From Eubacteriales bacterium (GTDB lineage Bacteria > Bacillota > Clostridia > Oscillospirales > CAG-272), in the NCBI GenBank assembly GCA_045594745.1, contig JAZNZC010000001.1, forward strand, positions 1 to 59,472: a stretch of 59,472 bases of DNA, in the 5' to 3' direction. Of this stretch, positions 6,411 through 29,559 are shown piece after piece. A program made the translations under genes and the position numbers. Every line of letters starts with the position of its first letter. Positions within the stretch are counted from its first letter, which is position 1. The notes beneath the pieces were generated by a model. That model had not been told where the DNA came from, made no database searches, and worked only from the letters and a program-made list of their open reading frames with translations.

Positions 6411-8408
6411 TTACTCACCGTGAAATCCATACCACTCTCCGTTTGCAACACCTAAAGGAGCTTGGTTTTTGTAATGTCCGCGCAGTCCGGGAGTTCCGTT
6501 TGTTCCATTTGTACCTACGGTGCCGTTTTTAATGCCATTGCCGCCATTGCCGCCCTTACCACCAGTGCCTTTATCGCCGCCATTTGCGACGGCAGATTGA
6601 GCTCCCCAACCTGCCCAAATAGAAGTTTCGTAATAGCCGCCATTGCCGCCATTGCCGCCATTACCGCCATTACCGCCATTACCGCCGTTACCTTGTTGCC
6701 CGTTAGTAACATTGTAATTTGTCGATTGCTGAATTTCACACGATGTTGCATTTCCTGCTGCACCGCCATTACCACCGTTACCGCCATGGCCACCATTGCC
6801 GCCTTTGCCGCCATTTAGAACATCCACGCGATATTCGCGTGCACCATTTCCTTCGCCGCCATTACCGCCATAACCACCATTACCGCCATTGCCTCCGTGG
6901 CCACCGGATCCGCCGGTAATTTTGATTGTTCCGTTTGAGAGAAGACTGATTGCTTCGGCTTTTATTGCAAATCCACCATTGCCACCATTTGCACCATGAC
7001 CACCACAACTTCCGTTGAGGGCACGATTTTCTTGACCGGCATGTTGATTTTTGCCGGTCCAAGATGAATTATAATTGAAAGGGGGAGCAGTATTGTAACC
7101 CAATTCGCCGCCGTCGTCTCTGTAATAGATCCAATAGGTTCCGTCTCCGTTAATTCCATTTGCGCCACTACCGCCATTACCGCCATTGCCACCTGTTATT
7201 TCGCACGATATGTCTCCAATTATGGCAACCGCTTCTGCAATAATAGCGTGACCGCCATTTGTGCCGTTCGTTCCGTTTGCACCGGATTCTCCGTCAGGGC
7301 CGATTGTTCCATATGTAGGGGTACTTCCATCTATTCCGTTTCCTGCTCTGATATCCAAGTTTCCAGTACCTTTAATTTCTAACGAGGATTTGCCTATATC
7401 AATAACATTGCCGCCTGCGATAGATGTTGTAATAGAAGAATTACCTTTTGTGACAATTGTGAGTCTTATATTTCCACAATTGGTAAGAACAAAGGCGGAT
7501 TTTTCGTTGGTTACAAAATTAAAGTCTTCGAGATGTATAACTAATTCTTGACCTTCACTAAAATCAAGTAATTCAATGTACAGATTAGTGAATGTTTTTC
7601 GAGCAGTGCCAATCAAAAAAACTTCACAAACAGTATTTGTTATAGTGATACTATTGCGCGCCGCATCATGATTTAGGAAATTAGTATCTGCCTCTCTTGC
7701 CAAATCAATAGTGTTGGAACCACTTTCTAATTTGAAAGGGATAGCATCAATTGATCCGTAAGGTTTTGTTTTCCATTTTGCATACAAATTCAGCTCTCTT
7801 GGGTTTGTAAGCAAATTGTTTTCAAATGGAATTGTGTATGCATTGTCCTCATACCAGCCCAAAAAAAGATTAGATTCCGGATCAATATCATACTCCACTT
7901 GGGGAATGGTTACATTGTTTTCAATAGTATATTTTGCGGGGTAGTTGTTTCCTTTTATATAAGTTCCACCATTAAGATGATACTTGATTTTATATGTGTG
8001 AAGTTCCCACATTGCTTTAAGCGTGATAGTTTGACCTTCAGCAGCAAGATTCTTTACAGACTGTTCATCAGAAAAATGGGAAACACCGCTTTCTGTTTCC
8101 AATTCCCATCCCACAAAGTCGTATCCCGGTTTGGTAAACTTATTTTTGGCTAAATTTTGGGGTTGGTTGATGCGATGTATAGTAGTGTTTGTATTACCCG
8201 TACCACCGTTTGCATCGTAATTTACGTAGTAAAGAGGTTCTTCAAAAATTTCAAGGTCAATTCCAATTTTGCTCAACAAAGAGCCGATGATTGAGTAAAA
8301 GGGTTCATCATTGCCTGAAGATAGCGCATCCCCTACTATATTAAAAATCAAAAATATAGTAAAAGCTACACCAACAATCCATATCAAAACTTTTGCTTTA
8401 CGATTCAT
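6411..8408 (-). CDS. Membrane-anchored surface protein: two InlB-B/Listeria-Bacteroides repeats plus PGRS-like glycine-rich C-terminus
   Basis: N-terminal TM helix; YDANGGTG...GYDFVGW and YHLNGG...FLGWY...LYAKW; many GGNGG repeats; AGGAGG RBS. Confidence 0.8.
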
Positions 8409-8443
8409 TCTCTCATCCTCCTAAAATAAAATTCGCCCTTTCT

Positions 8444-8496
8444 AATATCCCAAATTGGAATATTAGAATTATACCATAATGGTATAATAATGTCAA
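8444..8496. promoter_or_regulatory. Divergent promoter with two palindromic operators (copy 1)
   Basis: Minus-strand TTGACA-17-TATAAT (8496-8468); palindromes tatccc-N5-ggaata and tatacc-N5-ggtata. Confidence 0.7.
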
Positions 8497-8521
8497 GGAT
8501 TTTTGAAAAAAAGGAGAAAAA

Positions 8522-8725
8522 ATGGAATTTCGGCTCAAAGAATTGCGAAAAAAGAAGAAAATATCGCAGCTTAAATTGGCTCTTGACTTAAATATGAACC
8601 AAAATACCATCTCTCGTTATGAAACGATGGAACGCGAGGCGGACTATGAAACGCTAATCAAATTAGCGGACTATTTTGGTGTTTCCATCGACTATCTTCT
8701 CGGCAGAGAAGAGAATAAAAAATAA
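8522..8725 (+). CDS. XRE-family HTH regulator (copy 1)
   Basis: RLKELRKKKKISQLKLA...TISRYE...LADYFGVSIDYLLG. Confidence 0.92.
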   Translation: MEFRLKELRKKKKISQLKLALDLNMNQNTISRYETMEREADYETLIKLADYFGVSIDYLLGREENKK

Positions 8726-8765
8726 AAGGTTTTACCAATCACGAAGATCGGTAAAACCTTTTTGT
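8724..8765. terminator. Bidirectional terminator (copy 1)
   Basis: aaaaggttttacc...ggtaaaacctttt. Confidence 0.8.
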
Positions 8766-8782
8766 TTGTGTTGTAATACTAT

Positions 8783-10975
8783 TTAATAGAGAGTAATTTC
8801 AAATTCGGGGTCATCGATATAATTGAAGTAGAAGGATCCCTCTAGGATGACTTCGCCGTCTTGCACTTCGGTAATGTTCACCTCAATGTAAGCGTAATCG
8901 GGGTCATCGCAAAGAGCATATTGGTATTGTGTTTCGGCTCCTTCTTCGCCCACCACGGTAAAGATAACGATAAGTTCGCCAAAGAAGTCATCGTAGGTGC
9001 AACGCAGATCAGAGATCTCTTCTTTTTTCGCAAGGTAAATCGGCAGAAGCTGCTCTACCATAGAGAAAGCCGATAGGAACTCTTCATCTGCATCAACCTC
9101 GTAAGTGGTGCCGTCAATGGCACTGTAGCCCTTGCCGTCAATCAACCATTGTTCCATATCAAGATCGCCTTGCACGATCCAAACGTATTTATCTTCACCG
9201 GACAAGCAATAATTCATCCAGAAGTCTTCTCCAAGATCACAAAACACGTCATACGCCTCGGCATTTTGCAGAGTTGTGCAGAGATCAACGTAAAGCGCGT
9301 AGATTTCATCCTCTGTTTTGGGGAGCTCAGGGGTGACTGTGTCATCGGGAATTTCATCAGCAGTGATGTATTCATCCGCATCCTCGGGCGGCAGAATTTC
9401 AACGGGCTCGCCGTAGCTGTTAATGGTATACATTACATAGGTCTCATTGGTTTGGTCAATTATGGAAACAACCTTTCCGTTCTCGTCAAAAATGACAGTT
9501 TCGCTAAAGAATTCGCCATCAACCTCCATCGAGATGATAAAGAAATAGCATTCCTCATAATAGTAAAGCTGTGCGTTGTCAACAAAGGAGTAATATTCAT
9601 CGGGCATTTCGCGAATAATGGAGTTGATGATTGTTTCAAAGGAGGAGAGGTCAAAAGCATCCTCTGCATCGCCATTCTCTTGCTTGATTTTTTGACCGTC
9701 AACATTTATATAAGCAGTCGAACCGATTACCCACATTTCCATCATTTCGGAGTCTGTTTCCATCAAAAAATACAAAGCATTCTCGCCCAGCTTAACTGCC
9801 GTAACAAAGTTGATGATCTCGTCATCAATATATTGCTGTGTTAGCACTTCAATATCAAAGGTAGTGCATTTAGGATATTCCTCAAGGAACTTGTTAAGCA
9901 GGTCTCTGCAAGTCATACCGTTGAGCGTATCCACGGGAACGGCACCTTCGGGAACATTGGAGTTATTGTTGCCGGGCAAAATATAGTCGTCGGCATCAGC
10001 GGGGGGCGCAATTTCTACGGGCTTGTTGTAGCTGTTAAAGATAAAGGTCGCATGCTCTGTTTCACTAAGGCCTTCTATGCGGATCAATTCTCCTGTGTTG
10101 TTGAAATAGTAACGTTCCGTTTCATCCTCACCGGTTTCGTCATCAGTTGTGTGGAGTGTTACGATGTAAACGCCGTCTAACAGATAAATGTTAGCATTGG
10201 CGGCATTCTCCAATTTTTCATCCGAAAACTTGGGCAATGCTTCTTTTTGGAAAGAGGAAATGAAATCTTCTCCCCAAATTTCTTCAATGCTTTCGGCAGG
10301 CTTTCTGAATTTTTGACCGCCCATGTTTGTGTAGCACATTCCGTCAACAAACCAGATATCAGCAGTCGTCTCGGCGGTTTGCATCGAGAGATAAAGATTG
10401 CCGTCATAAATTTTGAAGCAAACAGATTCGGTGGTTGTAACCCCATCCTCGGTGTTTTCCCTCGTGGCAGAAAAATCATAGCTCTCGGCAGCTGCAGAAT
10501 CGCTTACGAATTGCTCGAGCAGATCTGCGGCATTTTTGCCATTTACCGACTCAACGAAAACCGCGCCCTCGGGCTTGTCGGGGTCGTCGAGCTTGGAAAT
10601 TGAAGATGTTTCTGTTTCCTCGCAGTTTGAACAAGAACGAGTCTGTTCGCCTTCCTCCTTAATTGTGGGGGCTTTGGTTTCAACCCATTCTCCAAAAGAG
10701 TGACCTGTTGCAGCAATCTCTTCTTGAGGCACAAGGATTTTGCCGCAAGCAGAGCACTTTTTGCCCTCGGCAAGGCCGGTTTCTGTGCAGGAAGGGGCTA
10801 CCGCAGGAATCACTTCCTCGGTATGTACGTGGGGAGGAGTAGTCGGTTCCGGAGTGGTTTGCTCGGGAGTAGTTACAGCGGGTGTACTATGAGGTGTCTT
10901 GTCACACGCCGCAAATATCAGTAAGATACTGATCACCAAGCAAAGTAAGGTAGCAATTTTGAATGTTTTTTTCAT
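8783..10975 (-). CDS. Large acidic lipoprotein with Cys/His-rich module and internally repeated ~200-aa domains
   Basis: MKK signal with FAAC lipobox; HVHTEEVIPAVAPSCTETG...CSACG; repeats PEGAV.V...NG ... SY..PVEI.PP.DAD.YI; AAGGAG RBS. Confidence 0.8.
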   Translation of the reverse strand: MKKTFKIATLLCLVISILLIFAACDKTPHSTPAVTTPEQTTPEPTTPPHVHTEEVIPAVAPSCTETGLAEGKKCSACGKILVPQEEIAATGHSFGEWVETKAPTIKEEGEQTRSCSNCEETETSSISKLDDPDKPEGAVFVESVNGKNAADLLEQFVSDSAAAESYDFSATRENTEDGVTTTESVCFKIYDGNLYLSMQTAETTADIWFVDGMCYTNMGGQKFRKPAESIEEIWGEDFISSFQKEALPKFSDEKLENAANANIYLLDGVYIVTLHTTDDETGEDETERYYFNNTGELIRIEGLSETEHATFIFNSYNKPVEIAPPADADDYILPGNNNSNVPEGAVPVDTLNGMTCRDLLNKFLEEYPKCTTFDIEVLTQQYIDDEIINFVTAVKLGENALYFLMETDSEMMEMWVIGSTAYINVDGQKIKQENGDAEDAFDLSSFETIINSIIREMPDEYYSFVDNAQLYYYEECYFFIISMEVDGEFFSETVIFDENGKVVSIIDQTNETYVMYTINSYGEPVEILPPEDADEYITADEIPDDTVTPELPKTEDEIYALYVDLCTTLQNAEAYDVFCDLGEDFWMNYCLSGEDKYVWIVQGDLDMEQWLIDGKGYSAIDGTTYEVDADEEFLSAFSMVEQLLPIYLAKKEEISDLRCTYDDFFGELIVIFTVVGEEGAETQYQYALCDDPDYAYIEVNITEVQDGEVILEGSFYFNYIDDPEFEITLY

Positions 10976-20648: not shown

Positions 20649-21302
20649 ATGACTTACGTAATTTCGGATATTTGCGGCAACTATCAAAAATTCAAGGAGC
20701 TGATGGATAACGTTCTCATCAGCGATAGCGATACGCTCTACATTCTCGGCAACACCGTTGATTTTGGCGACGAGCCGATGGAGCTGATCGAGGACATCAG
20801 TATGCGCGCAAACGTCTACGCAGTAGCAGGCGAGCGCGACTATCTTGCCGCACGTATGCTGTACGGCTTTGATAAGATGCTCAAGGGTGGCACCACGCCC
20901 GATGCAAATTATATTTCCGAGATGACCGCATGGGTCGCCGAGGGCGGACAAACCACTCTCGACGGCTTCCGTGCACTCGATGCCGACTCCCGTGAGGGTG
21001 TGCTCGATTATCTTGCCGAAATGACGCTTTACGAAGAAGCAGACGTGAAGGGCAAAACATACATTCTGATGAGTCGCGGCATTGCAAATTACGACCCGGA
21101 TACCGATCTTGAGGACTACGAGCCCGAGGACTTTTTCGCGCCCGACGCAACCGCTCCAGAGATCGAGGATGCCATTGTTGTAGTTGGCGGAGAGCCCACC
21201 AAGAGCGGCAAGATCGAGCGAGAGGGCAGCGTGATTCGCATCAACTGCGGTGCAAAACTCGCGTGCCTCTGCCTTGAGACCGGCAAGGAGTTCTACGTCT
21301 GA
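20649..21302 (+). CDS. Calcineurin-like metallophosphoesterase homolog with degenerate active site
   Basis: YVISDICG, LYILGNTVDFG, GERD in place of SDxHG, GDxxDRG, GNHE. Confidence 0.7.
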   Translation: MTYVISDICGNYQKFKELMDNVLISDSDTLYILGNTVDFGDEPMELIEDISMRANVYAVAGERDYLAARMLYGFDKMLKGGTTPDANYISEMTAWVAEGGQTTLDGFRALDADSREGVLDYLAEMTLYEEADVKGKTYILMSRGIANYDPDTDLEDYEPEDFFAPDATAPEIEDAIVVVGGEPTKSGKIEREGSVIRINCGAKLACLCLETGKEFYV

Positions 21303-22696
21303 TGCAAAAAAATGATATTTTGCGTGTCCGCATCGAGGAGATCAACAATCTCGGCTTTGGCGTGGCACACGCAGAAGAGAAGAACGGCACGCGCGGCAAG
21401 GTCATTTTTGTGCGCGATGCTGTCACCGATGATGTGCTGGATGCGCGTATCATCAAAGTGAATAAAAGTTATCTCATTGCAAAAATTGAAAGAATGATAG
21501 AGCCCTCTGCGCTTCGCGCAACCGAGGGCGTTTGCACCGCCGCGGGATGCGGAGGGTGCGTTTATCAGCATATCCAGTATGAGCACGAAGCCGCCCTCAA
21601 GCGCGACTACGTCGAAAATGCATTCCGCAAAGCGGGGCTTTCGGATGTGAAAGTGGGCGAGCTTCGCCACACGGGAGAACTGACACGCTACCGCAACAAG
21701 GCGCAGTATCCCGTTGCTAACGGCAAGGCGGGAATGGTCGCGGGCTTTTATGCCACGGGTACACATCGCATCGTGCCTATGTCCGATTGCGCGCTTCAGC
21801 CCGAGGTGTTTGGCAAAATCGTGAACTACATCTGCGCGTTTTGCGACCGTAACGGCATTCGCGCCTACGAAGAAGAAAACGGATGCGGCGAATTGCGCCA
21901 CATTTATCTGCGCACGGGCGCCGAGACGGGCGAGGTGATGGTTTGCCTCGTTGTCAACGGCAAACATCTCAAAAACGAGGATACCCTCGCACGCGAATTG
22001 ACAGAGTATTTCCCCTCTGTCAAGAGTGTGATGCTCAATGTCAACCACGAGAATACCAACGTCGTCCTTGGCGATGACTACCGCTGCATCGGCGGCCACG
22101 ATTATATCGAGGATGTTTTGTGCGGACTGACATTCCGCATCTCCGCGGGAGCATTTTATCAGGTCAATCACAACGCCTGCGAGCTGCTTTACGGCATCGC
22201 GCGCGAGCGCGCAAAACTGACAGGAAAAGAGACCGTCCTCGACCTTTACTGCGGCATTGGCACCATCGGGCTTTCGATGGCAAAGGAGACGGAGAAGGTC
22301 ATCGGTATTGAGATCGTCGAAGAAGCCGTCACACGCGCTGCCGAGAATGCCGCGCGCAACAACATAACAAACGCCTATTTTTATTGCGGTGACGCTTCAA
22401 ACGCCGAAAAGCTGTTGGAGCGAACAGAGGCCGCCCACGGCGATATCTCGGGAGCAACCGTCATTATGGACCCCCCTCGCAAGGGAAGCACGCCCGAGCT
22501 CATCACCTACCTCGCCAAGCGCAACTTCGCGCGCATCGTCTACGTCTCCTGCAACCCCGACACCCTCGCCCGCGATTGCGTGCTGTTCAGAGAATTGGGA
22601 TACGAAATTGGAGAGGTAACGCCTGTGGATATGTTCCCGAGGACAGGACACGTGGAAAGTGTCGTTTGTCTGACGCGGTCAGACAAAGCGACGTGA
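21302..22696 (+). CDS. rlmD: 23S rRNA m5U1939 methyltransferase
   Basis: TRAM domain, CGGC, YRNKAQ, FYQVN, DLYCGIGTIG, DPPRKG, YVSCNP, VDMFPRTGHVE. Confidence 0.95.
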   Translation: MQKNDILRVRIEEINNLGFGVAHAEEKNGTRGKVIFVRDAVTDDVLDARIIKVNKSYLIAKIERMIEPSALRATEGVCTAAGCGGCVYQHIQYEHEAALKRDYVENAFRKAGLSDVKVGELRHTGELTRYRNKAQYPVANGKAGMVAGFYATGTHRIVPMSDCALQPEVFGKIVNYICAFCDRNGIRAYEEENGCGELRHIYLRTGAETGEVMVCLVVNGKHLKNEDTLARELTEYFPSVKSVMLNVNHENTNVVLGDDYRCIGGHDYIEDVLCGLTFRISAGAFYQVNHNACELLYGIARERAKLTGKETVLDLYCGIGTIGLSMAKETEKVIGIEIVEEAVTRAAENAARNNITNAYFYCGDASNAEKLLERTEAAHGDISGATVIMDPPRKGSTPELITYLAKRNFARIVYVSCNPDTLARDCVLFRELGYEIGEVTPVDMFPRTGHVESVVCLTRSDKAT

Positions 22697-22961
22697 TATA
22701 ACGCCTTACGGCGCGTGATATAGAACGCTTCGCGTTCGTGATATGCACCCTTCGGGTGCGTGATATGTCGCTTGCGCGACGTAAGGCGATGGCGTTCCAC
22801 GCTCGGCTTTGCCGAGCATATCACGCCGAGCAACGCGAGGCTATATCACGCTTGGCGCAGCCAAGCATATCACGAAAGCCAACGGCTTTCCATATCACGC
22901 GCGACGAAGTTGCGCTATATCACGACGGCAACGCCGTCTATATCACTCCACCGTAGGTGGA
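22692..22961. repeat. Hairpin array: 4x CGTGATAT then 6x ATATCAC linkers separating 11 sequence-variable stem-loops
   Basis: e.g. gcaccc-ttc-gggtgc, gctcggc-ttt-gccgagc, gcttggc-gca-gccaagc, gaaagcc-aac-ggctttc, tccacc-gta-ggtgga. Confidence 0.9.
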
Positions 22962-22976
22962 CCAAAAGGAGTATTT

Positions 22977-23330
22977 ATGGCAAAAACCTCACACGAACTC
23001 GCGATTGAATTTGCAGTTGAGATTACTGAATTATGCTCAAGAATAAAAGGGCGACCTGAATATACAAAGCAACTTATTCGCAGTGCATCTTCGATTAGTG
23101 CGAATATTGCTGAAGCTAAATATGCCGAGAGTAATGCTGACTTTGTTCATAAGCTCGAAATAGCCCAAAAGGAAGCAAACGAAACCGAAACTTGGCTTAG
23201 TGTTTTGTGTAAGAGCGGTATTATTGATGAGCTCACTTTCAAATCTTTACGAAACAAGTGTGGTAAGATCAGAAGAATGTTGATTGCTTCTATTACGACT
23301 GTTAAATCAAAATCTAACAGACAAAAGTGA
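22977..23330 (+). CDS. Four-helix bundle protein (23S rRNA IVP / Avd-like family)
   Basis: QLIRSASSISANIAEA...DFVHKLEIAQKEANETETWL signature; AAGGAG RBS. Confidence 0.88.
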   Translation: MAKTSHELAIEFAVEITELCSRIKGRPEYTKQLIRSASSISANIAEAKYAESNADFVHKLEIAQKEANETETWLSVLCKSGIIDELTFKSLRNKCGKIRRMLIASITTVKSKSNRQK

Positions 23331-23387
23331 TTTTTGAGCAAAACTCGAAATTCTTATTTACAGCTGTTTGGTATAACATATCGAAAG
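23328..23387 (+). repeat. Repeat B copy 1 (pre-ORF motif, possible extended -10 promoter)
   Basis: ttttgagcaa.actc.aaa...tttaca.ctgtttggtataacatatcgaaag, also at 26118-26176. Confidence 0.7.
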
Positions 23388-23412
23388 TTTTTTCATAAAG
23401 GGGGAACGAAAA

Positions 23413-23679
23413 TTGACAAATAAAGAAATGATTTTAGATAGCTTAATTGACGATGACGAAGCATTTACTCAAATAGTGGAATATTTTGAGTTGGTTGCCG
23501 AAATCAAAATATCTCATCAAGAAGTTGAAAAATTATTAGAAGAAATGTTAGATGAAGGCTATATTTCTATAAATTATAGCTGGAAAAATGAACATGGTGA
23601 ATACCCATATTCGTTGACTGAAAAAGGCAAAAAGGCTTGGGAAGAAATAAAGGAGTTATATATAGTCATCCATTTATAA
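23413..23679 (+). CDS. Cassette cargo: small winged-helix-like protein
   Basis: TTG start after AAGGGGG; LLEEMLDEGYI...YSLTEKGK wing motif. Confidence 0.65.
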   Translation: MTNKEMILDSLIDDDEAFTQIVEYFELVAEIKISHQEVEKLLEEMLDEGYISINYSWKNEHGEYPYSLTEKGKKAWEEIKELYIVIHL

Positions 23680-23680
23680 A

Positions 23681-23815
23681 ATGAGACTTTAAGGTAAGCA
23701 ACCTTTCGGAGAGGGAGCAAAATATACCTTTTGGCTTTACAACCCCCGTTTTTGACACAAAAATATACCTTTTGGTCTTATGACCCATGTTGAGTCCGTC
23801 GTTTGTCTGACGCGG
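23681..23815 (+). repeat. Cassette junction 1 (three boxes plus rlmD tail)
   Basis: Boxes at 23683, 23723, 23764; tail catgttgagtccgtcgtttgtctgacgcgg at 23786. Confidence 0.85.
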
Positions 23816-23826
23816 AAGGAGTAAGT

Positions 23827-24192
23827 ATGGATAATATTTTTACAACAATTCAAAAATTAACCGAATTAAATGACTTTTACTCGGTCTTATCCTTTCTTCG
23901 TGAAAAGGAAAAGGAGGGCGATATTGTTTTATATGCAGGAACATATTGTTTTGAAATGGCTTTAGAACGTTTTGGTAATTACGATGATGCTTCTTTTTAC
24001 ATTTACACTACGCAAGATAAGAGCGGGTATTGTGTTTACATAAATAGAATGGGGTGTGGAATCCGTGAGGATAACAAAATCTTTAAATTTTCTCACCGTT
24101 ATCTATACAATAAAAACCATTTAAGTAACTGTTTCTTTGGAGAAAAGGATTGCCGTTCTGGCGAATATTTTAAGAAAAAGAGTAAAAAGTGA
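23827..24192 (+). CDS. Cassette cargo: hypothetical protein
   Basis: AAGGAG RBS inside the tail repeat; stop inside next arm. Confidence 0.7.
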   Translation: MDNIFTTIQKLTELNDFYSVLSFLREKEKEGDIVLYAGTYCFEMALERFGNYDDASFYIYTTQDKSGYCVYINRMGCGIREDNKIFKFSHRYLYNKNHLSNCFFGEKDCRSGEYFKKKSKK

Positions 24193-24243
24193 GACCTTTT
24201 GCTTTCACAACCCCCATTTTTGACAGGTTTTGAGACCTTTTGC
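24185..24243 (+). repeat. Truncated junction (two boxes, no rlmD tail)
   Basis: gagaccttttg at 24191 and 24232 with caaccccc between. Confidence 0.8.
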
Positions 24244-24284
24244 GAAGCAAAAACTTCACCAATCAACAAAAAGGAGAAAGCAAT

Positions 24285-24743
24285 ATGAGAAAAAAACGCA
24301 CATTTGCCTTTCATAGCAGATTAGATCCACGCAATTTTGGTGTAAGAATGCAAGAAGAAGCGAAACAAGCACGTTTACCAATTGAGCAATCCGAAAATGC
24401 ATTTAATTTGCGTATTGACGGCAATCACGGTGGTCAAGTTTTCTATCAGGCTCGCATATCCGCAGACGAATATGGTGGCTCTCTTATAGAAGGGGAGATA
24501 ATCACCATTCCTTGGAATGAGGGTGAAAATAAAACTAAGTTCGAAAAAGTTATGGAAGTGATTGGTTACGTACTTGGTGGTATTGTTTTGTCACCTATTA
24601 TCATTTTGGTTTTTCTAATTTTGGGATTTGATGAATTGTTTTGTCTTTTTAAAAACAAGGGCAAAAGAGAATTGCCAAGAGAAGAGAAAAAACTTCTTGA
24701 TTTTATGCTCAATAAACTATGTTGTACTCAAATTACGGATTAA
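24285..24743 (+). CDS. Cassette cargo: hypothetical membrane protein
   Basis: AAGGAG RBS; one C-terminal hydrophobic segment. Confidence 0.7.
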   Translation: MRKKRTFAFHSRLDPRNFGVRMQEEAKQARLPIEQSENAFNLRIDGNHGGQVFYQARISADEYGGSLIEGEIITIPWNEGENKTKFEKVMEVIGYVLGGIVLSPIIILVFLILGFDELFCLFKNKGKRELPREEKKLLDFMLNKLCCTQITD

Positions 24744-24751
24744 GTCGCGGT

Positions 24752-24849
24752 AAAAATATACCTTTTGTAGTTTCCACCCCCGTTTTTGGCACAAAAATAT
24801 ACCTTTTGGAGTCTTAACCCACGTCGAGTCCGTCGTGTGTCTCACAAGG
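24752..24849 (+). repeat. Cassette junction 2
   Basis: Boxes at 24757, 24798; tail at 24820. Confidence 0.85.
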
Positions 24850-24857
24850 AGATAATT

Positions 24858-25250
24858 ATGGAGTTTAGCGAAATTTATAAAACAGTTTTTGAAATCAATC
24901 CCAGCTTGAAAGACAAGATTGAAAACGACGCAAAAGACTTTTGCGTCATCAAATTTCATGAATATTTGACGATTGGATTTGATGATGATTATGTTGATAT
25001 CAATCAAGGATTCACGCATGCGCATCTTGATGGAGTGGATAACAAGCTATTTTTTGATATTATTCAAGGAAATATGGTTTTTGTGCAAGACACGCGAAAG
25101 TTTTCAATAAAAATGTTTTCCTTGTTGCAACCCTGGAATTTGAAAATAACGAGCAAACAAAAATTTGAAACTAAAAAAGCTTCACTTATGAAGAAGAAGT
25201 ATTTGCGCATATATACAGCAAATGAAATCATAAAAAGAAGCGAAAAGTGA
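24858..25250 (+). CDS. Cassette cargo: hypothetical protein
   Basis: AAGGAG RBS in tail; stop inside next arm. Confidence 0.7.
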   Translation: MEFSEIYKTVFEINPSLKDKIENDAKDFCVIKFHEYLTIGFDDDYVDINQGFTHAHLDGVDNKLFFDIIQGNMVFVQDTRKFSIKMFSLLQPWNLKITSKQKFETKKASLMKKKYLRIYTANEIIKRSEK

Positions 25251-25341
25251 GATTTTAAGGTATTACACCCCCCATTTTTGACCGATTTTGAGACCTTTTG
25301 GAGTCTTGACCCATGTCGAGAGTGTCGTTTGTCTGACGAGA
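25243..25341 (+). repeat. Cassette junction 3
   Basis: Boxes at 25249, 25290; tail at 25312. Confidence 0.85.
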
Positions 25342-25354
25342 GAGGAGTAATGAT

Positions 25355-25843
25355 ATGGAAAATCTTTTATTTAGTGATGTTCCGCAAAACGATGCCAAGG
25401 TTATGAAAAGTATGAAAGTAACACGAATTGTGTTAATTATTTTTTGTGCCATTGTTTTGCTTTTTGCGGTGCTTGGCTTGATTTTGAAAGACATTGTCAT
25501 CGTGATTGATTCGGTAATTGGAATTGTGCTTTTCTTTTCTCTTTTTATAACTTGCTTGTGTATGGAACAGCAGTATTTGCTTGTTTTTACTGATAAAATC
25601 AAGTATAAAAAGGGGCTCTCAGGAAAAGAAAAGCAGTTGACAATTGCTCCAAGTCAATACAAAATCAAATTGAGAAGGCTAACCACCCGAGGCGGCTATA
25701 CGGTTTGGATGTTGTTCTACAACCAAAAAGGCAAAAGGGTGTTGTCATATAAACTGTGCCAACCCCTCACGGACAAAAGAAAATATGATTTGAGCAAAAT
25801 AGGCTGTGAAATCATTGACCGGCAAAAAGTGATAAAGCAATAA
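25355..25843 (+). CDS. Cassette cargo: two-TM membrane protein with basic soluble domain
   Basis: GAGGAG RBS; two hydrophobic helices. Confidence 0.75.
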   Translation: MENLLFSDVPQNDAKVMKSMKVTRIVLIIFCAIVLLFAVLGLILKDIVIVIDSVIGIVLFFSLFITCLCMEQQYLLVFTDKIKYKKGLSGKEKQLTIAPSQYKIKLRRLTTRGGYTVWMLFYNQKGKRVLSYKLCQPLTDKRKYDLSKIGCEIIDRQKVIKQ

Positions 25844-25872
25844 AATTGACAGAGCGGTTTCAATAAAAAGGC

Positions 25873-25972
25873 AAAAGGTGAGACTTTAAAGTATTACACC
25901 CCCTGTTTTTCGACCATTTTGAGACCTTTTGTACTCTTGATCCACGTCGAGAGTGTCGTTTGTCTGACGAGA
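25873..25972 (+). repeat. Cassette junction 4
   Basis: Boxes at 25880, 25921; tail at 25943. Confidence 0.85.
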
Positions 25973-25985
25973 AAAATTTAACCTT

Positions 25986-26063
25986 GTAGGGACCGGCCTC
26001 CCGGACGGTCCGTTGAAAAGATAAAGGCCGTTGTTGCGGACCGTCGAGGACGCCGGTCCCTAC
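25986..26063. repeat. REPIN-like inverted pair of GTAG REPs
   Basis: gtagggaccggcctcccggacggtccg ... cggaccgtcgaggacgccggtccctac. Confidence 0.8.
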
Positions 26064-26117
26064 CAAAATCGGTGTTCAAAATCAAAAAATGCCCCAATTT
26101 TGCGTTGGGACAAATGA

Positions 26118-26176
26118 TGATTTTGAGCAATACTCAAAAGTACATTTTACATCTGTTTGGTATAACATATCGAAAG
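26118..26176 (+). repeat. Repeat B copy 2
   Basis: Matches 23328-23387; degenerate third copy at about 26767-26800. Confidence 0.7.
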
Positions 26177-26184
26177 GGGATTTC

Positions 26185-26652
26185 ATGAAAAAAAGCAAAT
26201 TAAACATCATTCAAAATGAAAACAAAATTACGGTCAAGAAAAAACCTGATGTTTCAAATTGTGTTATTTTCGCAGGGGTATTTCTTGCAGGAATTTTGCT
26301 TCCCATCATTTTTGGAGAATTAAGAGATGTTCCTTTGTTTTGGGTTGTATATGCGTTTTGCATGTTAGCAAACATTGCACATTTTACATCGACATTCTTT
26401 GGGAAAGTCGTGGTTGACTCGGAAAAACGAGAAATCAACATATATAATCTGTGTAAAGAAACATACCGTTTTGATGAACTGAAAGAGCTGAAAAGTTTCT
26501 TCCAAGAAGGAGACTCGGACGGTGGAATGGACACTCATAAGGTGTTGTTTATCTTTACAAACGGGCATAAAAGCGAAATACAAACAACAAGTAAAGAACA
26601 AACCCAAGAACTCATTGATGTGTTGAACGGGGTCATATTTCCGCAAAAGTGA
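26185..26652 (+). CDS. Cassette cargo: two-TM protein with possible PH-like C-terminal domain
   Basis: AAGGGG RBS; two TM helices; stop inside next arm. Confidence 0.7.
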   Translation: MKKSKLNIIQNENKITVKKKPDVSNCVIFAGVFLAGILLPIIFGELRDVPLFWVVYAFCMLANIAHFTSTFFGKVVVDSEKREINIYNLCKETYRFDELKELKSFFQEGDSDGGMDTHKVLFIFTNGHKSEIQTTSKEQTQELIDVLNGVIFPQK

Positions 26653-26743
26653 GACTTTAAGGTATTACAACCCCCATTTTCAGCCCATTTTGAGACCTTT
26701 TGTACTCTTGATCCACGTCGAGAGTGTCGTTTGTCTGACGAGA
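26645..26743 (+). repeat. Cassette junction 5 (near-identical to junction 4)
   Basis: Boxes at 26651, 26692; tail at 26714. Confidence 0.85.
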
Positions 26744-26806
26744 AAACAACCCCGCCCTACGAAAATATTTTACAATAGTACAAGTTAACATACCGAAAGG
26801 ATAATT

Positions 26807-27361
26807 ATGATTTCTGACGAAGGAAGTAGATTCAAATCTTGGAGCAACCTAAAAAAGCAGATGAATGATTTACTTTGCGATTCACTCAAGGGGAAAATTT
26901 CGTATTTTTATACCTGTTATCACGAAGTTCACAACGCTTACGGCAGAGCGACTATCAATTATTGCAAGAACGAAATTGTCGCCTTTTCGTGGGTGGAGCG
27001 ATATCACCAGATGTACGATATGAGTGAGCAATACAAAAAGATGGATGATGGTTCACGCCCACCTGCGAATTATGAAGATGCTGTAGATGCTTATATGGCA
27101 GCCAGTGCTGTGGTCACGAAAGAAAAATGGATGCCGAATTGTACTTTGTGCGAGGCGGATTTCATCAATTCCATTACCGTTTATCTCAAGACAAATATCT
27201 CAACCGCTCTTCAATCGGATAATTATCTGTTGCGCGTATTTGCCTACATGGATAGAAGAGTTGGTAAACGAACGCTTATAAAAATCAAAGATGATGTGGA
27301 AAAGCTGCCTGAATGGGTAAGGCAGTTCTATCGCATACGCTGTGAAGCTGAGAAAGTTTGA
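26807..27361 (+). CDS. Cassette cargo: conserved hypothetical protein (resembles SF0329-type family)
   Basis: WSNLKKQ...LCDSLKGKI and DRRVGKRTL motifs recalled from a widespread uncharacterised family. Confidence 0.7.
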   Translation: MISDEGSRFKSWSNLKKQMNDLLCDSLKGKISYFYTCYHEVHNAYGRATINYCKNEIVAFSWVERYHQMYDMSEQYKKMDDGSRPPANYEDAVDAYMAASAVVTKEKWMPNCTLCEADFINSITVYLKTNISTALQSDNYLLRVFAYMDRRVGKRTLIKIKDDVEKLPEWVRQFYRIRCEAEKV

Positions 27362-27415
27362 AATATACCTTTTGACTTTATGGTCCACGTTGAGAGTGTC
27401 GTTTGTCTTTCGCGA
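27361..27415 (+). repeat. Cassette junction 6 (one box plus tail)
   Basis: Box at 27364; tail at 27386. Confidence 0.8.
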
Positions 27416-27435
27416 AAATAATATGAGGTACATTT

Positions 27436-27789
27436 ATGAATGACATTGAACTTATCTACAATGAATTAAAAGACAAGTACAAATTGCTTTTAACCAATAG
27501 TTTCGCATTAAATGAAGGGTTTACGTGGGATGTTCCCGTTATTTGTGGCAAATCTCCATCGGGCAAATTTTGGCTCTACGCCGATGAAGATATTCCCGAT
27601 CCACACGGTATTGAATTTGTTTTCTCTGTAGAATACGAAAAGCGAACTCGGTTCAGAAAGCGCTTGGTTAAATGTCACACCCATTGGCATCCGCAGACTA
27701 TAGAGCAAGCTATTGCGGATGTTGAAGACTTTATGGATGGCAAAATTCATTTTTCGCAGACACTTACGGGAGTTTTGATCAAACGTTGA
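27436..27789 (+). CDS. Cassette cargo: hypothetical protein
   Basis: GAGG RBS; runs into the last junction. Confidence 0.65.
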   Translation: MNDIELIYNELKDKYKLLLTNSFALNEGFTWDVPVICGKSPSGKFWLYADEDIPDPHGIEFVFSVEYEKRTRFRKRLVKCHTHWHPQTIEQAIADVEDFMDGKIHFSQTLTGVLIKR

Positions 27790-27811
27790 AAGTGTCGTTT
27801 GTCTCACGAGG
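27759..27811 (+). repeat. Cassette junction 7 (degenerate; probable oldest rlmD tail)
   Basis: gacacttacgggagttttgatc-a-aacgttgaaagtgtcgtttgtctcacgagg. Confidence 0.75.
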
Positions 27812-27824
27812 CAAATCCAACCTT

Positions 27825-28000
27825 GTAGGGGGCGACGTCCTCGACGCCCCGAGAACAAACGGATTTTTGATTGTTAAAAAAGAAAACCGCATGAGAAAGA
27901 CACGCCGTCTGATTTATTTGTGCTTTTTACAACGGGTCGTCGAGGACGTCGACCCCTACAAAAGTTGTTTTCCCCGTAGGGGCGATTCACAAATCGCCCG
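27825..28000. repeat. Cluster of three GTAG REP-like palindromes
   Basis: 27825-27851 (+), 27933-27959 (-), 27976-28000 (+). Confidence 0.8.
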
Positions 28001-28041: not shown

Positions 28042-29559
28042 ATGAAAATTGCAAGCATTATGAATTTTGCGCGGCAGATCGATCAGCGTATGGAGGATAG
28101 CGAAAATATCCTCTTTAACGCAACGCGTGCCGAACTCGAAATGGTCAACGAATTTGGCTTTGAGAATACCTTCCTTTTGCAATACGACGTCCTTTGTGAT
28201 CCGCGCTATGCGGAACTGTTCCGCGAAAAGGGAACCGAGCGTACCGAGCTTGGCATTTGGTACGAGATCGTCGAGCCTCTGACCTCTGCCTGCGGACTCC
28301 CTTACAAGAGCGAGCGCGGCTGGCGTTGGGATTGGCATATCGTTCCAGGCTTTTCAATGGCTTATACCCCTCGGGAGCGCGAAATGCTCATCGACGAGGC
28401 GATGCGAAAATTCAAAGAGGTCTACGGTTATTATCCGCGCACTGTGGCAAGCTGGCTGATCGACACACACACGGTTCGCTATCTTGCAGAGCATTACGAC
28501 GTCGATGCTATCGCAATCTGCCGCGATCAGACCAACACAGATGCCTACACGCTCCACGGCGGATATTTCAATCAAGCATACTATCCCTGCAAGAACAATA
28601 TCTTCACCCCCGCGCAAAGCGAGGGAGAGCAGGTGAATGTTCCTGTGTTCCGTCTTTTGGGGCCTTGTCCCATTCACAACTATGACAACAAAAAATACCT
28701 CACCCACGCGTGGGATGCGCGCCTGCACTGCGGTTGCTTTACAATGGAGCCCGTTGGCTCTGTCGGCGCCGCGCCCGAGAACGTGGATTGGTTCTATAAA
28801 ACATTTTATCAAAACGAGGATCTTGGATTTTCCTGGACGCAGATCGGTCAGGAGAACAGCTTTGGCTACACCGAGTTTTTGCCGCAGCTGCGTATGCAGA
28901 TCGAAAAACTGACAGAGCAAAAGAATGTTCAAGTAATGAAGATGTGCGACGCGGGCGCGTGGTTCAAAAAGACTTACCCGAGCACGCCTGCTACGTCGGT
29001 GGTCGCTCTGGACAACTGGGACAGAGGAAGTGATGCGCAATCGGTTTGGTACGATTGCCAAAGCTTTTCTGCAAATCTCTTCCGCTTCGAGCGGAGCATC
29101 TTTATTCGCTCGTGGCATCTGTTCGACGAGCGCGTGCCCGAGCATTACATCACTGAAAAATGCACCACATTCGATGCGGTGTATGAAAATTTGCCTCTTG
29201 TCGACGCTCTGTTCTGGAATGACGGCGAAAATTACAAGAGCGGCATTCAAATTGACGCCGATGCGTCGTCTTTTGCGGTCGAGCGCCGCGGCGAGGACTC
29301 CTTGGCAGTCAAATGGAGCGGTGGCGAGGTGATATTCCTTCCCGACCGCATCAAAATCACTGCTCCCGTGCTTCGCTTTTGGGCGAGTCGCGCAAAGTGC
29401 TTGACGGTGGCAGGGAATACCATTCAGTACAACTATAAAGGAACGCCTTATACATTGGAGATTATCAGCGCCGATGTCCACGAGGAAGCCGATCATATCT
29501 CCATCACGCCAACGAGCGGCCTGTGCGAGCTCATCCCACGCCGCGCCGAAACTGTTTGA
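28042..29559 (+). CDS. Uncharacterised protein, possibly glycoside hydrolase/deacetylase barrel
   Basis: Long ORF with RBS; TFLLQYD, ELGIWYE, KFKEVYGYYP motifs. Confidence 0.6.
   Translation: MKIASIMNFARQIDQRMEDSENILFNATRAELEMVNEFGFENTFLLQYDVLCDPRYAELFREKGTERTELGIWYEIVEPLTSACGLPYKSERGWRWDWHIVPGFSMAYTPREREMLIDEAMRKFKEVYGYYPRTVASWLIDTHTVRYLAEHYDVDAIAICRDQTNTDAYTLHGGYFNQAYYPCKNNIFTPAQSEGEQVNVPVFRLLGPCPIHNYDNKKYLTHAWDARLHCGCFTMEPVGSVGAAPENVDWFYKTFYQNEDLGFSWTQIGQENSFGYTEFLPQLRMQIEKLTEQKNVQVMKMCDAGAWFKKTYPSTPATSVVALDNWDRGSDAQSVWYDCQSFSANLFRFERSIFIRSWHLFDERVPEHYITEKCTTFDAVYENLPLVDALFWNDGENYKSGIQIDADASSFAVERRGEDSLAVKWSGGEVIFLPDRIKITAPVLRFWASRAKCLTVAGNTIQYNYKGTPYTLEIISADVHEEADHISITPTSGLCELIPRRAETV

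Follow-up and report, generated by a model that had tools for sequence, protein, structure and literature searches.

The end of rlmD, the gene for a 23S rRNA m5U1939 methyltransferase, recurs seven times behind the gene in a Eubacteriales bacterium (Oscillospirales, CAG-272 in GTDB), and these tail copies are the junctions of an integron-like, low-GC array of cassettes. The locus lies in a stretch of 59,472 nucleotides (GenBank assembly GCA_045594745.1, contig JAZNZC010000001.1, positions 1 to 59,472 of the forward strand), which we refer to as the window and within which all positions are numbered. The array most probably consists of mobile cassettes that inserted at the rlmD 3' end, with tail copies that have been selected as replacement ends of the RlmD protein. 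Cassettes move between genomes and between array positions, and the end of the gene is replaced with them. A site-specific recombinase that acts in trans may carry out the exchange itself. The textbook example of a system that stockpiles single genes is the integron; the locus described here, together with at least 120 relatives, represents a comparable gene stockpile in gut Clostridia that follows a different principle.

The target gene (21302..22696, + strand) encodes 464 residues. Its product belongs to RlmD/RumA, with 376.2 bits against the rumA equivalog model TIGR00479 (cut-off 183.55), contains the full Pfam domain set (TRAM and tRNA_U5-meth_tr) and aligns end to end with the solved RlmCD structure (PDB 5xj1). 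The last conserved strand, HVESVVCLTR, is encoded at 22649..22678 by the tail copy that forms the functional end of the gene (copy 0). Including this one, the window contains eight 30-nt tail copies, all on the + strand, starting at 22649, 23786, 24820, 25312, 25943, 26714, 27386 and 27782. A degenerate 20-nt tail pattern has eight matches where 0.04 are expected, and at most one in 100 shuffles. With this pattern no tail copy was found outside the array in the 2.26-Mb assembly, where the sole other match, on another contig, is not a tail copy. A junction consists of a conserved arm of ~69 nt followed by the tail copy (repeat family D1). The arm is made of two direct units of ~30 nt, each containing ACCTTTTG; the first unit ends in CCCGT and the second in CACGT, where the tail copy begins.

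The tail copies in the window have diverged as coding sequences do. Five of the seven downstream copies read HVESVVCLTR, one HVESVVCLSR and one NVESVVCLTR, and the in-frame extensions that follow them are, in order, KE-stop, R-stop, EE-stop, KI-stop, 14 residues, K-stop and 21 residues. Their 37 base differences from the rlmD copy are distributed over codon positions 1, 2 and 3 as 9, 2 and 26. In the rlmD frame, 28 of the 30 changed codons are synonymous, whereas the same differences give synonymous to non-synonymous counts of 4:22 and 0:26 in the other two frames. The Ser codon alternates between AGT and TCC. A previous reading of this DNA, made from the sequence alone, had proposed that the junction repeats diverge synonymously because each is a replacement RlmD C-terminus; the divergence that it described is present in the rlmD frame alone, and every detail that it gave (seven copies, their peptides, the AGT/TCC switch and five short extensions) was confirmed on recount.

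To extend this beyond one locus, we scanned one genome per species for the arm word followed by a degenerate tail, which yielded at least 120 contigs, all from metagenome-assembled genomes (MAGs) of Clostridia and many from the ruminant gut. As the scan pattern itself favours synonymous-looking tails, the junctions were re-detected with an arm-only profile, and one pattern-matching junction was removed per scanned locus to correct for ascertainment. This left 99 arm-profile hits: 22 first units of arms, 13 worn or other-type junctions (three without a tail, five truncated or degenerate, three with an indel of 1-2 nt and two of another type) and 64 in-register tails, all distinct. Across codons 1-8 of these 64 tails, mean entropy at the three codon positions was 0.45/0.27/1.04. 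Substitutions were thus far from evenly spread over codon positions. Read in the rlmD frame, codon changes relative to the consensus numbered 182 synonymous and 73 non-synonymous; the other two frames gave ratios of 35:200 and 12:219. This bias in the corrected set supports selection on the repeats at the protein level, as the sequence-only reading had proposed.

Three further features of the tails are (almost) independent of the scan pattern. Codon 4 encodes Ser in 166 of 176 distinct junctions (58 of the 64 corrected ones), using AGY in 123 and TCN in 43, two codon families that are unconnected. At codon 10, which lies outside all search patterns, the third base depends on the first: it is a purine in a ratio of 97:2 in codons that start with A, where this keeps Arg or Lys, and of 55:18 in codons that start with C (Fisher, 4e-6). 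Finally, an in-frame stop follows within three codons of the tail in 95 of 176 junctions (3 and 15 when the other frames are read) and in 37 of the 64 corrected ones (1 and 5 in those frames). These features bear on the alternative that the codon periodicity reflects recombinase recognition only, in that an enzyme would contact the invariant codon positions 1 and 2 of sites that are free at the wobble position and never translated. Two observations agree with such recognition. Wobble positions in codons 5-7 are more constrained than the protein needs (entropies of 0.82, 0.99 and 0.34 in junctions that lie on rlmD), and the arm end and tail start share a dyad consensus that lacks compensatory change, like a protein-binding site. 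Recognition alone predicts neither two disjoint Ser codon families, nor the dependence at codon 10, nor the in-frame stops, and cassettes do sit on rlmD and furnish its end. We therefore regard it as improbable. Protein selection would account for the pattern, as claimed from the sequence alone, with the reservation that conservation of codons 5-7 exceeds protein need and is partly a DNA-level effect.

Next, we consider whether cassettes move. The 258 junctions with full flanks fall into 191 families of sequence downstream of the tail copy. Of the 33 cassette families that occur in at least two loci, 18 are found both directly on rlmD and internally in an array, 13 only internally and two only in first position. 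Cassettes in first position, whose absence the sequence-only reading had named as decisive against it, are therefore common, and the coding-frame signature of the junctions shows that cassettes really cycle through this position. Cassette 1 of the window was found elsewhere twice directly on rlmD and once internally. Two other window cassettes recur once each, internally, and four were not found at the threshold used. The stronger claim that each tail copy once served as the real rlmD end is not demonstrable copy by copy; of the seven cassettes downstream in the window, the first alone was observed in first position in other loci. Cassettes have a median length of 702 nt, and in 58 of 58 the longest open reading frame (ORF) shares the strand of rlmD. 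In 70 of 107 junctions a start codon occurs close to the in-frame stop. Because start triplets are so frequent, this uncontrolled count does not speak for translational coupling, and we rejected that idea.

The end of the gene changes with the cassette that lies on it. In six genomes of the same genus, in which the preceding 50 residues are at least 96% identical, RlmD ends in LTR-SDKAT-stop, LER-REL-stop or LTR-K-stop, and these six ends face five different downstream sequences. Cassette exchange thus alters the last residues of the enzyme, as the sequence-only reading had supposed. In an unselected sample of 30 same-genus rlmD ends, 22 were of the cassette type and eight had other tails (HVESVCLLSK..., HVECVVLMSK..., HVETVVLMTK...). 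Ten distant Bacillota genomes contributed 13 rlmD-family loci, some being second copies within a genome, and all that these loci have in common is H-[VI]-E-x-[VI]. As some rlmD ends within the genus, and those in distant genomes, differ from the cassette-type tail, the tail of the window rlmD, which had been called native, is itself a member of the mobile cassette pool. Its last 15 codons, the tail copy and SDKAT-stop, are borne by a cassette. In the annotated RlmD proteins of these genomes, the last 7-15 residues are mobile DNA, and the tail copies may mislead gene callers. Three same-genus loci with a non-cassette tail (L188, L192 and L195) have a conserved C-terminal extension that continues the frame (...SKLNAKQHIEINLDMD...), giving open frames of 549 and 559 residues in two of these genomes versus ~465 elsewhere; the extension is an additional module on RlmD.

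Individual loci record further steps of this exchange. The functional rlmD end of locus L023, HVESVLRLAR, is the same odd tail that is carried internally by the same 297-nt cassette in L013. The most distal junction of L021 has a tail of another type, HIETVVLLNRK-stop, which may be the displaced original end of the rlmD gene of that host; among the close relatives sought to prove that this tail is ancestral, none exceeded 53% identity. In L082, the second tail copy, 210 nt behind rlmD (6697-6940 in the oriented locus), is preceded by codons for D-I-F-P-Q-T-K and not by an arm, and represents a captured longer piece of the rlmD end of another genome. Last visible junctions are a median of 6 nt from the consensus versus 4 nt for other junctions (one-sided p = 0.0055), and the consensus peptide is still read in 38 of 100 of them. 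This gives modest support to older tails being distal. Concerted evolution within arrays was considered and rejected, as junction similarity is in only small excess within arrays (0.78, versus 0.76 between arrays).

The larger sample also indicates where in the tail the exchange occurs. Co-variation links tail positions 10-30 to the first 6 nt downstream, with z of 3.1-13.2 at seven of nine variable positions and weak values at position 15 (0.8) and position 25 (1.2). No such link was seen for positions 3, 6 and 9, whether to the downstream cassette or to the 11 bases upstream. In junctions that lie on rlmD, third-position entropies of codons 1-3 (0.86, 1.64 and 1.0) resemble those of the upstream rlmD codons, and those of codons 5-7 are low, as given above. 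In hosts that were never hit, identity with the tails of the cassette pool is limited to the first five codons. Together, the linkage, wobble entropy and never-hit hosts point to an exchange zone in the first nine bases, CAYGTNGAR, which would encode His-Val-Glu, so that the cassette would contribute codons 4-10 and the stop. If a tyrosine recombinase were at work, its overlap region would be expected to leave such a zone, tied to neither flank. Narrowing the exchange point to nine bases provides a defined substrate for finding the enzyme. Change-point mapping of breakpoints was uninformative, as all junctions are alike and the change point lands on the edges of conserved blocks.

At the boundary of arm and tail lies a 7-bp dyad, composed of the arm end and the tail start. 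At none of 13 positions did pairing exceed that of shuffled columns, and a dyad without compensatory change favours a protein site over a fold; the hairpin reading of this dyad was rejected for want of covariation. The same result bears on the suggestion that the repeats are structural RNAs or terminators conserved for folding, their likeness to rlmD being incidental. A terminator scan flags stems over the arm/tail boundary, and some cassettes start with sequence that pairs with the tail copy. However, besides the failure of the 13 candidate pairs, most junctions lack a downstream partner, and folding predicts neither the codon-frame signature nor the in-frame stops, which makes this explanation very unlikely.

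Several observations weigh against selected replacement ends moved by a site-specific enzyme. Tails differ at positions 3-25 between copies of a single cassette with 97% identity or more, and one cassette body was seen with either of two arm variants. These mosaic junctions mean that exchange does not take place at one clean point, or that gene conversion is frequent. The wobble uniformity of codons 5-7 goes beyond protein need, which implies that a DNA-level constraint or shared descent adds to it. Functional ends can be degenerate, with three residue changes in L023 and HVESVVGIEK in L043, so that selection on the tail is not strict. The junctions counted above are distinct sequences rather than independent events, and most of the genomes are incomplete MAGs. 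No recombinase or transposase was found on the window contig (neither PF00589 nor PF00239, with 32 window ORFs compared with Pfam) or, among the matches listed, in 84 representatives of array-internal ORFs from 120 loci. The only recombinases common to six array-bearing genomes are Xer-like ones of the tyrosine type, and a profile of the arm found no copy elsewhere in the genome.

The mosaic junctions, with exchange points in both arm and tail, and the lack of a recombinase among the genes found would fit a model without any dedicated enzyme, in which homologous recombination between junction repeats of ~100 nt follows DNA uptake. For a first insertion into an unrelated host, such recombination would have only about 9-15 shared bases to work with. 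In addition, similarity to the cassette pool begins at the same His codon in 64 of 64 junctions on rlmD (located by a pattern that starts there), the two-unit architecture of the arm is conserved and typical of protein-binding sites, and junctions within an array are barely more similar than those between arrays. We give this model little chance. A recombinase acting in trans remains our preferred reading, and the tyrosine type would fit a nine-base zone that is linked to neither side.

A second candidate for such an enzyme is a large serine recombinase like those of mobile elements that insert in rumA/rlmD. It would mobilise the cassettes in trans, as for elements of the staphylococcal cassette chromosome (SCC) that lack ccr, and the arm would be left over from the 3' part of an integrase gene, where the attachment site lies. 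In streptococci, integrative and conjugative elements (ICEs) that encode a single serine integrase target rumA and exchange the 3' parts of this gene and the integrase gene, according to the available text of PMC4701971. The window assembly encodes three large serine recombinases; at least one is present in 28 of 41 same-genus genomes. However, no serine-recombinase domain (PF07508) was found near rlmD in 36 same-genus genomes, the sole one on an rlmD contig being 63 kb upstream. No serine recombinase was found in the array-bearing MAG G401 or in three same-genus assemblies with cassette tails (G408, G409 and G418), all four of which are incomplete. As the recombinase negatives rest on incomplete MAGs, they do not by themselves demonstrate absence. 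The arm is without a match elsewhere in the genome, and a nine-base unlinked zone with two direct units of ~30 nt is unlike a 2-bp serine crossover. In addition, the published ICEs, as far as their available descriptions go, shift the RumA frame, which is retained here. Mobilisation by a serine recombinase is thus rather unlikely, although less so than an enzyme-free exchange. The junction pattern had no match in viral contigs or in plasmid or phage collections. One contig of the assembly (C126 of G000, 7582-9312) encodes a large serine recombinase of 576 residues, the last ~90 of which resemble read-through into non-coding DNA. This is the ending expected for an integrase that has its attachment site in its own gene and is integrated away from rlmD.

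In the mechanism that we propose, cassettes would insert successively into the 3' end of rlmD. Each would carry RlmD codons 4-10 (S V V C L T R), usually with a stop, at its upstream end and the arm of ~69 nt with its two direct units at its downstream end, and exchange would take place within the first nine tail bases. The cassette that lies first would complete the rlmD frame, and the earlier end would be displaced downstream as a non-coding copy. As any cassette can reach first position, its tail copy would stay under protein selection, and this selection would give rise to synonymous divergence, to the AGY/TCN switch at Ser and a CGN/AGR switch at Arg, and to in-frame stops. The coding-frame signature also accounts for how an insertion hot spot can persist in a conserved gene without destroying it. 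A broader and more tentative idea, on which we would not yet rely, is that these arrays are the functional counterpart of integrons in gut and rumen Clostridia, without a linked integrase. The rlmD end would be the platform and probably the source of transcription, each cassette would bring seven spare codons and a stop, and the nine-base exchange would fall to an enzyme acting in trans, possibly a tyrosine recombinase of the host. With seven spare codons and a stop in each cassette, the attachment site would be preserved by selection on the host protein.

The likeness to integrons, and to clusters of attC sites lacking integrases (CALINs), is in the layout. In both, the array runs in one direction and its single-gene cassettes, mostly without promoters, have no known function and are shared between species, with a conserved site after each gene and one fixed platform for insertion. 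The rlmD arrays agree with this in the orientation of all 58 cassettes and in the 18 of 33 multi-locus families that occur both first and internally. They differ in using a housekeeping gene's end as the platform and in having a site that doubles as coding sequence for part of a host protein. Furthermore, no IntI-type integrase (PF00589) occurs on the window contig or in the 84 array-internal ORFs, and in place of an attC fold the junctions are conserved in sequence, with no pairing above shuffles at 13 pairs in the one pairing scheme used; attC sites, by comparison, are folding imperfect palindromes in which structure is conserved and sequence is not. Integrons are not known to occur in Firmicutes.

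An element that sits in the 3' end of a gene and carries a substitute end is an established principle, known from SCC at rlmH. SCC elements of staphylococci, with the large serine recombinases CcrAB or CcrC, likewise occupy the 3' region of an rRNA methyltransferase gene and have end repeats between elements, as described in the portions of the SCC literature available. Composite SCC islands contain tandem elements with internal att sites, the outermost being taken as the oldest, and 450 att pairs without ccr are reported, some elements being without a recombinase (available text of PMC13739063). Here the target is rlmD rather than rlmH. The arrays lie in gut Clostridia, their units are for the most part single genes (median length 702 nt), and a 30-nt repeat with a 69-nt arm stands in place of the 8-bp core motif that the available SCC descriptions give. 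No ccr-like gene was seen in or near any array.

[quoted passage not shown] In streptococcal rumA ICEs one repeat lies within rumA and its partner within the integrase gene; those in rumA are 2-21 bp long (available text of PMC4701971). These elements are large, have their own integrase with the attachment site inside it, change the RumA frame and are described as gene-disrupting in the available text of PMC4701971 and PMC5704250. In the arrays studied here, by contrast, frame and conserved strand are restored and no integrase was found. Neither a relaxase nor an integrase was seen, and the cargo consists of small ORFs, restriction-modification genes and HNH genes. The recombinase-associated acquired interbacterial defence (rAID) clusters of Bacteroidales likewise hold small orphan genes of atypical GC content in gut bacteria, but adjoin a tyrosine recombinase (available text of 10.1101/471110), whereas no recombinase is found at rlmD arrays. 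Among the array-internal ORFs are restriction-modification, HNH, T5orf172 and DMP19-like genes, along with many that have no family. The DMP19-like, DUF4304 and SF0329 families of the cargo may be of the kind found in immunity-gene arrays. In the literature searched, which covered neither supplements nor most subscription journals, we found no description of cassette arrays at rlmD/rumA. New here are the coding-frame evidence, the in-frame stops, the recognition of the resident tail as mobile and the nine-base exchange zone.

In the window, the island has a GC content of 0.34-0.42, compared with about 0.5-0.55 in the flanks, and contains nine small ORFs, all on the rlmD strand (+), as are the arms and tail copies. 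Most of the cargo is without a family, the exceptions being proteins with a four-helix bundle, a small winged helix or the SF0329 family. Cassette 1 (22679..23716) contains two mirrored hairpin-repeat blocks and two ORFs, the four-helix-bundle one at 22977-23330 and the winged-helix one at 23413-23679. It is followed by junction arm 1 (23717..23785; two direct units of family D1) and tail copy 1 (23786..23815), followed by KE-stop. Cassette 2 has a first ORF of 121 residues (23827..24192) and a second of 152 residues (24285..24743), both without a family, the latter with a relative in the L021 array. Between them lies an arm without a tail copy (24175..24242, repeat family D3), which is a worn junction at which two former cassettes have fused. 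Arm 2 (24751..24819) and tail copy 2 (24820..24849, then R-stop) follow.

The next three cassettes each hold one ORF without a family. These encode 130 residues at 24858..25250 in cassette 3, with arm 3 at 25243..25311 and tail copy 3 at 25312..25341 (then EE-stop); 162 residues at 25355..25843 in cassette 4, which is found internally in L041 as the same cassette, with arm 4 at 25874..25942 and tail copy 4 at 25943..25972 (then KI-stop); and 155 residues at 26185..26652 in cassette 5, where a palindromic repeat and a promoter-like block (D5, D6, D10) stand ahead of the ORF, with arm 5 at 26645..26713 and tail copy 5, with its in-frame extension of 14 residues, at 26714..26743. The ORF of cassette 6 (26807..27361, 184 residues) is of the SF0329 family; its short arm contains the second unit alone (27361..27385, repeat family D2) and leads to tail copy 6 (27386..27415, HVESVVCLSR, then K-stop). 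The last ORF, in cassette 7 (27436..27789, 117 residues, no family), absorbs a degenerate last arm and stops 8 nt inside tail copy 7 (27782..27811, NVESVVCLTR), the distal end of the array. Beyond it are a palindromic repeat and then a resident gene at 28042, and the same flank follows the last junction in the same-genus genome of L167. Three unrelated cassette ORFs share their final words, AAAAGTGA (24187-24192, 25245-25250 and 26647-26652). As their stop codon lies within the first arm unit (GTGAGAC), the arm also furnishes the end of the cassette gene.

A strict arm-only pattern was found in 4 of 401 genomes sampled across the order and in none of 25 other genomes of the same family, all from other genera. 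Single cassettes and junctions occur in ruminant-gut metagenome contigs from several studies. No public run contained more than 0.30 of the sampled words of the region, and the contigs of four runs, which are short, hold single cassettes and junctions in other arrangements.

Other repeats accompany the cassettes. Immediately behind the rlmD stop codon, cassette 1 has four GTGATAT units, each with a short GC hairpin of differing sequence, followed by six mirrored ATATCAC units. These hairpin blocks (22691-22771 on the + strand and 22838-22925 on the - strand) give weak matches to the Rfam Gut-1 RNA, at 34.2 and 25.9 bits with a gathering score of 50. The same layout occurs in other loci, where the constant words differ (AACTAAGT and AATGAATTG are examples), and the hairpin-repeat modules begin with sequence that is complementary to a portion of the tail copy. 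A block of 68 nt is shared with 81% identity by two unrelated cassettes (23320-23387 and 26109-26176, D5). It is promoter-like and lies ahead of an ORF, with TTTACA, 17 nt and TATAAC, and metagenome contigs with loose ends at 26116 carry the same block. Palindromic repeats of the type CCTTGTAGGG...CCCTACAA follow two of the tail copies (25978-26066 and 27818-27963; D6, D10). Contigs with this repeat have 10-100 times the depth of cassette bodies (summed over four metagenomes), indicating a very abundant repeat family, and repeats of the same kind follow many last junctions of other loci.

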